Shown here: positions 37,055 to 62,888 of the stretch, piece after piece
Numbering within the stretch: the first letter of the stretch is position 1
Layout of the letters: the number at the start of each line of letters is the position of its first letter
From: Eledone cirrhosa
Lineage: Eukaryota
Length of the DNA: 64,000 nt
Direction: 5' to 3'
NCBI GenBank assembly: GCA_964016885.1
Contig: OZ024740.1
Coordinates: 390,042,001-390,106,000, forward strand
Program-made: the position numbers and the translations under genes
The notes under the pieces: model-generated
Databases searched by the model: none
Told to the model about the DNA's origin: nothing
What the model saw: the letters and a program-made list of their open reading frames with translations, nothing else

Positions 37055-40000
37055 TATGTATATATATGTATGTATGTATGTATGTATATGTATGTATGTA
37101 TATGTATGTATATATATGTATGTATATATATGTATGTATGTATGTATATGTATGTATGTATATGTATATATATATATATATATGTATATATATGTATGTA
37201 TATATATGTATGTATATATATGTATGTATATATATGTATGTATATATATGTATGTATATATATGTATGTATATATATGTATGTATATATATGTATGTATA
37301 TATATGTATGTATATATATGTATGTATATATATGTATGTATATATATGTATGTATATATATGTATGTATATATATGTATGTATATATATGTATGTATATA
37401 TATGTATGTATATGTATGTATGTATGTATATATATGTGTGTATATATGTGTATATATATGTATATATATATATATGTATGTATATATATATGTATGTATG
37501 TATATATGTATGTATGTATGTATATATATATGTATGTATGTATGTATGTATATATGTATGTATGTATGTATATATATATGTATGTATGTATGTGTGTATA
37601 TATATATATATATATATATGTATATATATATATGTATGTATATATATGTATGTATGTATATATATATATATGTATGTATATATATATATGTATGTATGTA
37701 TATATATATATATGTATGTATGTATATATATATATATATATATGTATGTATATATATATATATATGTATGTATATATATATATGTATGTATATATATATA
37801 TGTATGTATATATATATATATATGTATGTATGTATATATATGTATGTATATATATATATGTATGTATGTATATATATATGTATGTATGTATATGTATGTA
37901 TGTATATATATGTATGTATGTATGTATGTATATATATATATATGTATGTATGTATATATATATATATGTATGTATATATATATATATATGTATGTATATG
38001 TATGTATATGTATGTATGTATGTATATATATATATATATGTATGTATATATATATATATGTATGTATGTATATATATATATATATATATGTATGTATATA
38101 TATATATGTATGTATATATATATATGTATGTATATATATATATGTATGTATATATATATATATATATATGTATGTATGTATATATATGTATGTATATATA
38201 TATATATGTATGTATGTATATGTATGTATGTATATATATGTATGTATGTATGTATGTATATATATATATATATGTATATATATATATATATGTATGTATA
38301 TATATATATATGTATGTATGTATATATATATGTATGTATGTATGTATATATATATATATGTATGTATATATATATATATGTATGTATGTATATATATATG
38401 TATGTATGTATATATATATGTATGTATGTATGTATATATATATATATGTATGTATATATATATATATATGTATGTATATATATATATGTATGTATGTATA
38501 TATATATGTATGTATGTATATATATATATGTATGTATGTATATATATATATATGTATGTATGTATATATATATATATGTATGTATATATGTATGTATGTA
38601 TGTATATATATATATATGTATGTATGTATATATATATATATGTATGTATGTATATATATATGTATGTATGTATATATATATATATGTATGTATGTATATA
38701 TATATATATATGTATATATATATATATGTATGTATATATATATATATATGTATGTATATATATATATATATGTATGTATATATATATATATATATGTATG
38801 TATATATATATATATGTATGTATATATATATATATATGTATGTATATATATATATATGTATGTATATATATATATATATGTATGTATATATATATGTATG
38901 TATGTATATATATATATATATGTATGTATATATATATATATGTATGTATATATATATATATATATATGTATATATATATATATATATGTATGTATATATA
39001 TGTGTATATGTATGTATATGTATGTGTATATGTATGTATATGTATGTGTATATGTATGTATATGTATGTGTATATGTATGTATATATATGTGTATATGTA
39101 TGTATATATATGTGTATATGTATGTATGTATATATGTGTATATGTATGTATGTATATATGTGTATATGTATGTATGTATATATGTGTATATGTATGTATG
39201 TATATATATATATATATGTATATATATATATATGTATGTATATATATATATATGTATGTATATATATATATATGTATATATATATATATATATGTATGTA
39301 TGTATGTATATATGTATGTATGTATGTATGTATATATATATGTAGGTATATATATATATATATATATGTATGTATATATATGTATATGTGTATGTATATA
39401 TGTATGTATATATGTATGTATATATATGTATGTATATATATGTATGTATATATATGTATGTATATATATGTATATATATGTATGTATATATGTGTATGTA
39501 TATATGTATGTATATATATGTATGTATATATGTATATATGTATATATGTATGTATATGTATATATGTATATGTATATGTATATATGTATATATGTATATG
39601 TATATGTATATATGTATATGTATATATATATATGTATATATATATATGTATATGTATATATATATATGTATATGTATATATATATGTATATATATATATG
39701 TATATATATATATGTATATATATATATGTATATATATATATGTATATATATATATGTATATATATATATGTATATATATATATGTATATATATATATGTA
39801 TATATGTATATGTATATATGTATATGTATATATGTATATGTATATATGTATATATATATATGTATATATATATATGTATATATATATATGTATATATATA
39901 TATGTATATATATATGTATATATGTATATATGTATATATATATGTATATATGTATATATATATGTATATATGTATATATATATGTATGTATATATATATG

Positions 40001-41254
40001 TATATATATATGTATATATATATGTATATATATATGTATATATATATGTATATGTATATGTATATATATATGTATATATATGTATATATATATGTATATA
40101 TATATATATATATATATATATATATGTATATATATATGTATATATATATATATATATGTATATATATATGTATATATATACATATAGATATATACATATA
40201 CATATATACATATACATATATATATATATATATACATATATATATATACATATAGATATCTATATCTATATGTATATATATATGTGTATATCTATATGTA
40301 TATCTATATGTATATATATATATATATGTATATATATATATATGTATATATCTATATGTATATATATGTATATATGTATATATCTATATGTATATATATG
40401 TATATATCTATATGTATATATATGTATATATCTATATGTATATATCTATATGTATATATCTATATGTATATATATATATATGTATATATCTATATATATA
40501 TATATATATATATGTATATATATATGTATATATATATATATATATATATATATATATGTATATATATATGTATATATATATATGTATATATCTATATATA
40601 TATGTGTATATATATATGTGTATATATATATATGTATATATATATGTGTATATATATATATATATATCTATATATATATGTGTATATATATATGTGTATA
40701 TATATATATGTATATATATATATGTATATATATATATGTATATATATATATGTATATATATATATGTATATATATATATGTATATATATATATGTATATA
40801 TATATGTATATATCTATATATATATATGTATATATATATATGTATATATATATATGTATATATATATATGTATATATATATATATATATATATATATATA
40901 TATATATGTATATATGTATATATGTATATGTATATATGTATATGTATATATGTATATGTATATATGTATATGTATATATGTATATGTATATGTATATATA
41001 TATATATGTATATATATATATATGTATATATATATGTATATGTATATGTATATGTATATGTATATATGTATATGTATATGTATATGTATATGTATATATA
41101 TATATGTGTATATGTATATATGTATATATGTATATATGTATATATATATATATGTATATATATATATATATGTATATATATATATATGTATATGTGTATA
41201 TATATATGTATATGTGTATATATATATGTATATGTGTATATATATATATGTATA
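37055..41254. repeat. About 4.2 kb degenerate (TA)n/(TATG)n array
   Basis: Directly visible. Confidence 0.97.
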
Positions 41255-41663
41255 GGCAGAATTCTAGGAGAAGGAAAACTCTGATATAACACCTGCAACC
41301 CTGATGGTATCCAATGATGTTGACTTGTTCTTCTTTTTGGTAAATATCATCTTGGTTAAGAGAGTGGGACTGGCTTTGTGCAGTGCCTTTGCTCACTATA
41401 AAAGCTTCACGGCACAGGCATTGCTTTATATCTGGAGATCTCTCTGCACTTGTCCTCACATGGGCCCAGCACTATGTGTCAATGGTTGTCCTACCATGGG
41501 CCCAGCACTATGTGTCAATGGTTGTCACAGGTGTAGTGTTTGTACCAGAGGTTTCAAGTCGCTGGCTGGACTAAAAAGTCACACTCGTTCAGCGCTTCGG
41601 TAGGGGTTATCCTACATGGATGTAAAGTAGTGGCCGTACTCGAAAACGAGTTGGCAGCCACCA
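41255..41663 (+). mobile_element. Short non-autonomous RTE-derived element, copy 2 (internal tandem duplication near 41459-41528)
   Basis: Aligns by eye to 36669-37052. Confidence 0.75.
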
Positions 41664-60949: not shown

Positions 60950-62300
60950 TTCTAGTTTGTAGGAAAGAAAATAAGGCGGCGGTCCCATCGGGGAAATGGC
61001 CATGCTCAGTGTGTAGGAAAGGCGTAGGTAGAAACTCCATTTTATGTCCCAAATGCAAAGTATGGGTGCATAAAAGATGTAGTGGGATCACAGGTAAGCT
61101 AACTAAGAACATAGATTTTACATGTGGCCGGTGCTCTGGTGCAATAAGTAGCAGCAAGTGCCCACAAAATACTAGCTCCTTCAACTGCGCAGAGGGTTCT
61201 ATAGAAATAGTGGACAGCTTCCGTTATCTGGGTGACAAAATCAGCAGTGGGGGAGGGTGCTCTGAAAGTACAGTAGCTAGAGTCAGAACTGGATGGAAAA
61301 AGTTCAGAGAGCTTATACCACTATTAGCCGCTAGAGGGTTCTCCCTAAAAATGAAAGGCAGGTTATACGATGCCTGCATACGAACAGCAATGCTGCATGG
61401 CAGTGAGACCTGGGCATTGTGTGCAGAGGATATACGCAGACTAGAGAGGAACGAAGCTTGCATGCTCCGCTGGATGTGCAATAGTAATATACGTGAACGG
61501 CAAAGCATAAACGAACTAAGGAAAAAATTAGAAATAAGAGGGATCAGATGTTGTTTACTCGAGAGAAGGCTACGTTGGTACGGTCACGTGATGCGCATGA
61601 AAGACGACAGCTGTATAACAAAGTGCAGGGCAATAAAGATAGACGGTAGCCACGGAGTAGGCAGACCCAGAAAAACATGGGACGAGCTGATAAATTCCGA
61701 CCTCACACGCTTACACCTCTCCAAGACAATGTCACTGGACCGAGACCTTTGGCGGTACTCAGTAATAGAGAAGACCCGCCTTACCTAAATACAAAGTAAA
61801 AACCTACTACAGTCAGTAGGCACCTCTATCAAAACACACCCCCGTCCCACCACCTCCACCCCACCCACACCGCCCCTTTCAATGTAAAGTTATGTTGGTC
61901 CCACAACATCCAGGCCGAAACAAATGAGATCGTGTAGGTGTCACGACAAAAAACACACAGTCCACGCTGTAAATGTGGCCGTGTAGGCAACACGGTAAAA
62001 ACCTCCCAGCCCCACACTGTAAATGTGGTTGGTGTTAGGAAGGGCATCCAGCTGTAGAAAACCAGCCAGACAGTCCACGCTGTAATGTGGCCGTGTAGGC
62101 AACACGGTAAAAACCTCCCAGCCCCACACTGTAAATGTGGTTGGTGTTAGGAAGGGCATCCAACTGTAGAAAACCCGCCAGACAGTCCTATGCGAGCAAG
62201 ACAACCACTCTTGCCTCAAGTGGGAAAACCCCCGTCCAAACCCATGCAAGCGTGGAACACGGACGCTAAACCTGATGATGATGATGATGATGATGATGAT
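60950..62300 (+). mobile_element. RTE family B, 5'-truncated, with a 3'UTR tandem duplication of about 113 bp
   Basis: LVCRKENK...KTRLT*; (GAT)n tail. Confidence 0.94.
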
Positions 62301-62888
62301 ATATGTATATATATATATGTGTATATATATATATGTGTATATATATATATGTATATATATATATATGTATATATATATATATGTATATATGTATATATAT
62401 ATATATGTATATATATATATATGTATATATATATATATATATGTATATATGTATATATGTATATATGTATATATGTATATATGTATATATATATATATGT
62501 ATATATGTATATATGTATATATGTATATATATATATATGTATATATATATATGTATATATATATATGTATATATATATATGTATATATATATATGTATAT
62601 ATATATATATGTATATATATATATGTATATATATATATGTATATATATATATGTATATATATATATGTATATATATATATGTATATATATATATGTATAT
62701 ATATATATGTGTATATGTATATATATATATATGTATGTATATATGTATATATATATATATGTATGTATATATATGTATGTATATATATGTATATATATAT
62801 ATATGTATATATATGTATGTATATATATATATGTATATATATATGTGTATGTATATATATGTGTATATGTATATATGTATATATATGT
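62301..62888. repeat. (TA)nTG array
   Basis: Directly visible. Confidence 0.95.

Follow-up and report, generated by a model that had tools for sequence, protein, structure and literature searches.

Instability of CAG/CTG repeats depends on their orientation and is based on the unequal hairpins of the two strands (PMC8145212). (AT)n tracts, such as those of Flex1 and Flex5 in the human fragile site FRA16D (PMC11797062, PMC12972899), form cruciforms, with a length of 20–22 units given for this (PMC11797062). Penelope-like elements that target (TA)n pile into TA repeats, some of them inverted (PMC8557442), and in Bigelowiella natans a TpA hypermutation turns TA into TG or CA (bioRxiv 10.64898/2026.01.13.699255). 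The subject of the present analysis is a set of TA arrays in a 64,000-nucleotide stretch of Eledone cirrhosa DNA, termed the window (positions 390,042,001–390,106,000 of contig C1 in a 3.0-Gb assembly; no N is present). About 15 kb of arrays are found there in a single intron of the FASN gene, and their interruptions are almost all TG on the sense strand. The phenomenon is real, is general in the genome and consists largely of known parts, i.e. mutation asymmetry, repeat turnover and TA-targeting retroelements. What is new is a tie, dependent on array length, of interruption polarity to gene direction; the evidence for it is suggestive.

The arrays resemble CTG/CAG repeats in that complementary strands differ in predicted hairpin stability and long tracts have a preferred orientation. 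They differ in that the repeat is an interrupted dinucleotide whose strand asymmetry comes from the interruptions only, growth proceeds by blocks carrying several G's, and the link is to the gene strand (cf. PMC8145212). The FRA16D tracts are likewise intronic AT/TA tracts in which interruptions limit perfect runs, but they comprise tens of units, whereas the present arrays span 2–7 kb with pure runs below about 20 bp and one-way interruptions (cf. PMC11797062, PMC12972899). As with the (TA)n-targeting Penelope-like elements, insertions accumulate in the TA repeats, some inverted; here, however, most are APE-type long interspersed nuclear elements (LINEs) (cf. PMC8557442), and TA targeting accounts for the splitting of the arrays, not for their polarity. 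The change of TA to TG or CA recalls B. natans, but the G's here spread by duplication, and flanking non-repeat transposon DNA shows no significant excess in TpA context (4.4 versus 3.7 per 1,000, p = 0.09). The A>G excess on the non-transcribed strand, here 1.30-fold, is similar to that of the human germline, where A>G strand asymmetry follows both transcription and replication (PMC9217108), and to liver signature 16, described as transcription-coupled A>G damage (PMC5670220). The germline asymmetry is a modest genome-wide rate bias, whereas here it appears frozen into the polarity of kilobase repeats and in long arrays may be exceeded. A literature search at title and abstract level, with the review PMC10030826 included, gave no account of gene-oriented interrupted TA arrays.

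The middle part of FASN is situated on the + strand of the window, with Pfam matches to KS, AT, DH, methyltransferase-like and pseudo-KR exons. A spliced contig of run X4 joins 30,274 to 32,884 at a GT..AG junction and departs from the window sequence at 33,030. The intron that follows extends from 33,031 to 94,124 (61,094 bp; positions are relative to the window throughout, those above 64,000 lying beyond its end), its GT..AG borders being read off the sequence. The next downstream exon begins at 94,125; it was identified by eye, and a Pfam search gave no match there. All arrays of 37,055–62,890 sit within this one intron.

There are 13 array segments in this region, 14,832 bp in total. Interruptions in clean context on the + strand comprise TG 1,468, CA 14, TCT 12, TTT 5, AGA 2 and AAA 2, and seven of the 14 CA cluster in one patch of the first array (Table 1). 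The preliminary description had claimed about 15 kb of arrays with TG on the + strand, i.e. with the G's on the FASN sense strand, and both claims are borne out, the gene being placed on + by Pfam and by the spliced contig. It had extended the polarity to essentially every array; this holds for 11 of the 13 segments, while the remaining two are short, nearly pure TA and carry one CA apiece. The statement that polarity disregards the orientation of neighbouring insertions also stands, since of 58 (GAT)n tails 26 have TG on the element sense strand and 32 on the opposite one. The arrays continue to 92,312, and the whole intron contains 26.4 kb of arrays with TG 2,953 versus CA 19; those of at least 200 bp are all TG-major (20 of 20). 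A further array of 4.4 kb, which starts 1.3 kb after the FASN stop codon, shows TG 470 and CA 0. Upstream of the window, at a distance of about 40 kb, there are short arrays that are CA-major.

Spacing of the G's within arrays shows how they spread. The longest repeated string of G spacings is 9.8 compared with 5.0 when shuffled, exceeding the shuffle in 48 of 49 long arrays, and the probability of the same spacing at lags 2–4 is 0.27–0.29 versus 0.169. The distribution is not geometric: it peaks at 4 and 10–12 bp and is thin above 20 bp (5.6% versus a geometric expectation of 12.9%), with 28 of 15,297 spacings above 40 bp. Higher-order structure is locus-specific, and a search for a gradient along the arrays showed none. 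None of 83 arrays of at least 1 kb is pure; the search pattern favours interrupted arrays in this sample. The G's have spread by block duplication and are mostly copies of one another. The 100:1 ratio of TG to CA represents one or a few amplified events, not 1,468 mutations, and because the G's are copied from each other, the 1,468:14 count overstates the evidence. CA interruptions form 84 clusters in 50 of 100 polarised arrays and stay small, in arrays that were selected for polarity. Counted by cluster, the TG strand shows excesses of A>T (75 versus 39), A>C (28 versus 20) and A loss (72 versus 38), all three inseparable from G loss. A fold-back origin of opposite-polarity blocks gave a clear mirror match in one of 19 mixed arrays. 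This is L080:4,862–7,257, in an intron of PKA-RII, where 14 consecutive G spacings of the neighbouring block recur in mirror order in the opposite-polarity block, a fold-back copy; the same tile also holds nearly pure TA tracts of up to 954 bp.

The spacers between the repeat tracts are mobile-element copies in both + and − orientation, as in a nest of retroelements targeting a microsatellite. Between 36,601 and 92,700, 28,048 of 29,728 spacer bases (94%) have copies at other fetched loci. Most spacers are LINE copies in both orientations, together with a Penelope-like fragment and short elements. The LINE copies within arrays are 96–99% alike and look active. The stretch is likely one ancestral TA repeat cut up by insertions; single ancestry is put no higher than this because target duplications are indistinguishable inside TA repeats. 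Descent from one seed later split by insertions, one of four explanations offered in the preliminary description, explains the polarity shared within the locus, and the FASN polarity counts as one event, not many.

The FASN locus is not unique. Across the genome, a tight 50-base pattern matches 2,071 times in forward and 2,033 times in reverse orientation, and kilobase one-way arrays are present on both strands. The first 100 matches listed represent 40 loci on C1, within its first 144 Mb, and most of these carry kilobase one-way arrays. Neighbouring long arrays agree in polarity in 73 of 79 cases, and 23 of 29 loci with at least two long arrays are uniform. Gaps of 200 N are found in eight of the 40 array tiles, and array lengths may be unreliable.

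Polarity was compared with host-gene strand in two samples. The gene-first sample covers 32 myosin, kinesin and kinase genes, with 80 tiles taken from the gaps that separate their ordered exons; 27 of the genes had arrays. Arrays below 500 bp are TG-major on the sense strand in 219 cases and CA-major in 165 (57%, arrays pooled), with 229 tied or pure. By length class the TG:CA counts are 104:64, 57:54, 40:28 and 18:19, and scored by gene the result is 14 versus 8, which is not significant (p = 0.29). Arrays of at least 500 bp number 9 TG and 2 CA, both CA arrays lying in one 115-kb kinesin gap. In the array-first sample of 40 loci, sequence on either side was added for 25 loci, and one more tile for each of two loci; a host exon was found at six long-array loci. 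The chitin-binding exon at L086 adjoins an array of only 207 bp and does not enter the count; for L195, L177, L082, L058 and L217 the candidate exons yielded no identity and were dropped before the tally.

For arrays of at least 1 kb, the gene-first sample gives TG on sense in two myosins and one kinesin, and the array-first sample in CAD, PKA-RII and an ABC transporter; in all six, exons flank the array on either side. Two further array-first genes, a C2-domain gene and a beta-galactosidase, also have TG on sense; each has an exon on one side, and a search for a further exon found none. CA is on the sense strand in one kinesin gap. With FASN excluded, eight of nine genes have TG on sense (p = 0.039, 95% interval 0.52–1.0). 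On C1 alone, both orientations occur: FASN and the ABC gene have TG on +, CAD and PKA-RII have it on −. The dependence on gene strand raised earlier is suggested by the long arrays; in short arrays it amounts to the 57% and the 14 versus 8 given above; the preliminary description overlooked both this length dependence and the folding asymmetry of the strands.

Private substitutions in intronic transposon copies, oriented by the host gene, were counted in 35 genes. On the sense strand of this neutral intronic DNA, A>G is in excess over T>C (268 versus 203, rate ratio 1.30, p = 0.005); by gene, A>G is higher in 22, lower in five and tied in eight. None of the other substitution classes in these copies is significant. 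In TAT context the A>G bias may reach 1.64-fold (30 versus 21, p = 0.09). A transcription-associated strand asymmetry of the germline is said to have been described by Green et al. in 2003. The 1.30-fold bias predicts 57% TG in short arrays and near splice donors. Donor-proximal patterns number TG 80 versus CA 47 (controls 301 versus 286) and, with tandem and duplicate matches collapsed by hand, 59 versus 45 (57%, p = 0.20), a weak comparison in that the donor motif resembles the array. The transcription-linked A>G bias of the preliminary description finds support at modest size, through the 1.30-fold ratio, the 57% and the eight of nine genes, and it is complementary to the single-seed explanation, not in competition with it.

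The two strands also differ in predicted hairpin stability, as in repeats with orientation-dependent hairpins. Modelled as DNA, the TG strand folds at −16.7, the CA strand at −13.2 and pure TA at −31.7 kcal/mol per 100 nt; the corresponding RNA predictions are −47.7, −22.3 and −50.5 (pure UA). The TG strand is predicted to be more stable in 21 of 21 windows at 100 and 200 nt, and in 14 of 21 at 40 nt (DNA). The inequality arises because G.T and G.U wobble pairs let the TG strand still fold, unlike the CA strand with its C.A mismatch.

These results may be joined as follows. Transcription-biased A>G mutation would set the TG-on-sense polarity of the first interruption in an intronic TA repeat. 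Growth would then proceed by copying blocks with several G's, and more than 20 retroelement insertions would split the ancestral repeat, each piece inheriting its polarity. Interruptions halve the predicted DNA hairpin stability and hold pure runs far below the 20–22 units of a cruciform; at one every 10–18 bp they may protect TA tracts from cruciform breakage and so let them grow to kilobases. Block duplication may be favoured by slipped hairpins on the TG strand where it is the exposed non-template strand, such that arrays with TG on the non-template strand would expand or persist better. An added growth bias of this type is suggested because eight of nine genes has a probability of 0.049 against a baseline of 0.57, or 0.088 against 0.62. 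One ancestral TA repeat, split by insertions and grown by blocks, with a polarity seeded by transcription and probably reinforced by orientation-dependent growth, is the preferred reading, and the chances that it is correct appear evenly balanced.

Several observations weigh against it. The same two probabilities, 0.049 and 0.088, are less favourable than the 0.039 obtained against 0.5, and the test set is small, with the 1-kb cut-off picked after the gene-first array counts were known. With exons on both sides only, the tally is six of seven genes (p = 0.125), and few strands are available, no host exon having been identified at 33 of the 40 loci. Arrays of 200–500 bp display no bias (18 versus 19). 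Six of the 29 loci with at least two long arrays are mixed, opposite-polarity blocks hundreds of bases long grow inside arrays, and the 115-kb kinesin gap switches from three TG arrays to two CA arrays. The sixth array-first locus with a host exon, a 5-kb array beside a + strand CHCH-domain gene and past its last exon, is CA on +; it was left out of the tally, and counted as a miss it gives 8 of 10 (p = 0.11). The last splice in RNA contigs of that gene ends before the array, and a 2.1-kb covered stretch has a base skew like that of a minus-strand 3′ untranslated region, a hint of a neighbour on the minus strand. Yeast (GT)30 is reported without an orientation effect (PMC8145212). The polarity rule is not absolute, as seen in the kinesin switch and the mixed loci, whether transcription or co-oriented replication is the source of direction. 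The kinesin gap (L158–L165, G000:C12:50.26–50.38 Mb) is a good locus for separating replication from transcription; the exon finder shows no nested gene in its sampled tiles.

Descent with the mild mutation bias only, in which the first interruption (about 57–62% TG on sense) passes its polarity on to the whole cluster and blocks duplicate neutrally, is a rather unlikely but serious competitor. It explains the uniformity within loci, where 73 of 79 adjacent long arrays agree, as well as the 57% of short arrays, the mixed loci, the kinesin switch and the opposite-polarity blocks, and the possible 1.64-fold bias in TAT context would strengthen it. The strong agreement of long arrays would then be a small-sample effect; however, eight of nine has a probability of only 0.05–0.09 under 0.57–0.62, and new CA interruptions, although frequent, stay small in arrays chosen for their polarity. 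Direction might alternatively come from replication, with the lagging-strand template deciding between TG and CA expansion as in CTG/CAG and forks mostly travelling with transcription. The orientation-dependent instability of CAG/CTG is established (PMC8145212), and human germline A>G asymmetry tracks replication as well as transcription (PMC9217108). Replication would also permit a switch within an intron and a polarity that persists just past a gene end. At L081, L089 and L053, however, polarity reverses within a few kb, while the usual fork-direction domains are coarser, and this account is judged improbable. In these places (L081 with L181–L182; L089; L053) there is little unique sequence between arrays of opposite polarity.

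The preliminary description also proposed that folded (UA)n intron RNA is edited by ADAR and copied back into DNA by reverse transcriptases, a step that RNA-templated repair might also perform. The proposal predicts G on the sense strand; the sense RNA is predicted to be nearly as folded as pure UA, active-looking LINE copies lie in the arrays, and an expansion model combining a deaminase and reverse transcription has been proposed in print (PMC7044655). A search for clustered scars in the intronic transposon copies, however, showed no run of four or more A>G among 268 events despite close inverted copies, only two G>A runs of four being found. The sense bias is no more than 1.30, the G spacing is block-copied instead of geometric, polarity ignores element orientation (26 versus 32), and if the DNA strand of an R-loop were edited, the opposite polarity would be expected. 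The proposal is unsupported and very improbable. Selection that removes long arrays with CA on sense, or keeps UG-rich intron RNA for protein binding, would be in keeping with a bias confined to long arrays. TG on sense, however, keeps the RNA double-stranded and adds 841 donor-like GTATGT and 2,821 TGTA motifs to the sense strand of the FASN intron, motifs whose roles make it seem the more harmful orientation, and selection is scarcely credible as the cause. An artefact of sequencing or assembly, which had been named as the fourth possibility, deserves as little credence. The N gaps do show an assembly struggling with these arrays, and read placement skips repeats, such that the judgement is made from assembly sequence. 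Forward and reverse matches are nevertheless nearly equal genome-wide (2,071 versus 2,033), the window is free of N, array structure is locus-specific, and within the single contig C1 the polarity changes along with the gene strand; an artefact would not know the gene strand.

If the link of polarity to gene direction holds, the arrays provide many independent natural replicates for the long-standing question of transcription versus replication in hairpin-repeat orientation, a single tight pattern giving 40 loci, among the matches listed, over the initial 144 Mb of one contig. It would also show TA tracts of a kind fragile in humans reaching kilobases by keeping pure runs below about 20 bp, and an intron of a housekeeping gene gaining 55 kb through such tracts combined with retroelement targeting. 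Should the mild mutation bias alone hold, the arrays record known processes in an ordinary way, though with unusual clarity. A bolder version, offered tentatively and with more doubt than the preferred reading, is that the kilobase TA arrays of this genome expand only or mainly with the RNA-like strand carrying TG, via a transcription-driven and possibly RNA-templated route. Hundreds of arrays would then be a natural compass of germline transcription, intron gigantism would be driven jointly with TA-targeting retroelements, and pre-mRNAs would be loaded with thousands of UGUAUAUA-type motifs. In the FASN intron TGTA[ACT]ATA, presumably the Pumilio-binding consensus, is present 1,474 times on sense and 20 times on antisense; this excess is probably a by-product of the polarity.

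Table 1. Positions of FASN exons, TA arrays and inserted elements in the window.
Feature	Position	Strand	Basis or remark
FASN exon, methyltransferase-like and pseudo-KR region	29,062–30,274	+	Pfam, spliced contig
FASN exon 5′ of the array-bearing intron	32,884–33,030	+	Pfam FAS_pseudo-KR, contig piece; donor GT at 33,031
First half of 61-kb FASN intron	33,031–64,000	+	Ends beyond window at 94,124
Retroelement 3′ end, about 400 bp, with C2H2 finger, copy 1	36,668–37,054	+	Copies at 29 other fetched loci
TA array	37,055–41,254	+	TG 490, CA 7; CA patch at about 40,160–40,250; TCT patch (12)
Element of about 400 bp, copy 2	41,255–41,673	+	Agrees with copy 1 at 366 of 386 aligned bases
TA array	41,674–46,709	+	TG 502, CA 1
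LINE copy, APE endonuclease and reverse transcriptase (RT)	46,710–50,031	+	Internally deleted; (GAT)n tail
TA array	50,032–50,321	+	TG 21, CA 0; flanked by + and − element tails
Short element	50,322–50,715	−	77% identity to LINE 3′ end
Short TA segment, nearly pure	50,748–50,819		One CA
Short insertion with inverted structure	50,820–50,994		
TA array	50,995–51,772	+	TG 79, CA 3
LINE 3′ end	51,773–51,976	−	
Short TA segment, nearly pure	51,977–52,035		One CA
Insertion with near-perfect palindrome of about 300 bp	52,036–52,422	Undefined	296 of 304 aligned bases
TA array	52,423–53,116	+	TG 66, CA 1
TA array	53,268–54,634	+	TG 91, CA 0
Penelope-like element fragment	54,635–57,684	−	GIY-YIG-like motif by eye; no Pfam match at E 0.001
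LINE copy, 5′-truncated	57,714–59,251	+	(GAT)n tail
TA array	59,252–60,949	+	TG 159, CA 0
LINE copy, 5′-truncated	60,950–62,298	+	(GAT)n tail
TA array	62,299–62,890	+	TG 56, CA 0; between tail-to-tail LINE copies
LINE copy	62,891–64,000	−	Runs past window end

In the internally deleted LINE copy, which we take to be RTE-like, a part of the RT region is missing near 48,850; the 5′-truncated copy at 57,714–59,251 is a similar piece. The palindromic insertion shows a hammerhead-like core by eye only, with no match to a Rfam hammerhead family. Rodent miRNAs of the mir-297 kind derive from such TA/TG repeats, and between 50,000 and 54,700 the TA/TG-rich mir-297 model scores sense array windows above antisense ones, all below the gathering score. 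The Rfam matches to mir-297, mir-3149, mir-1277 and mir-466 are likewise all below that score and were rejected as an effect of composition.

Further along FASN, another intron, between thioesterase exons, contains a satellite of about 55 kb (approximately 111,000–166,000, the L039–L041 region) with a G over C skew of 0.30 and a 200-N gap. The array past the stop codon (171,653–176,019, L042/L041) opens with a pure (TG)n run. The ABC-transporter gene with the array-swollen intron belongs to a cluster of such genes, mostly on the + strand, at G000:C1:33.6–36.1 Mb. At L207:280–7,074, two apparently identical inverted element copies of 2–3 kb with long open frames face each other.

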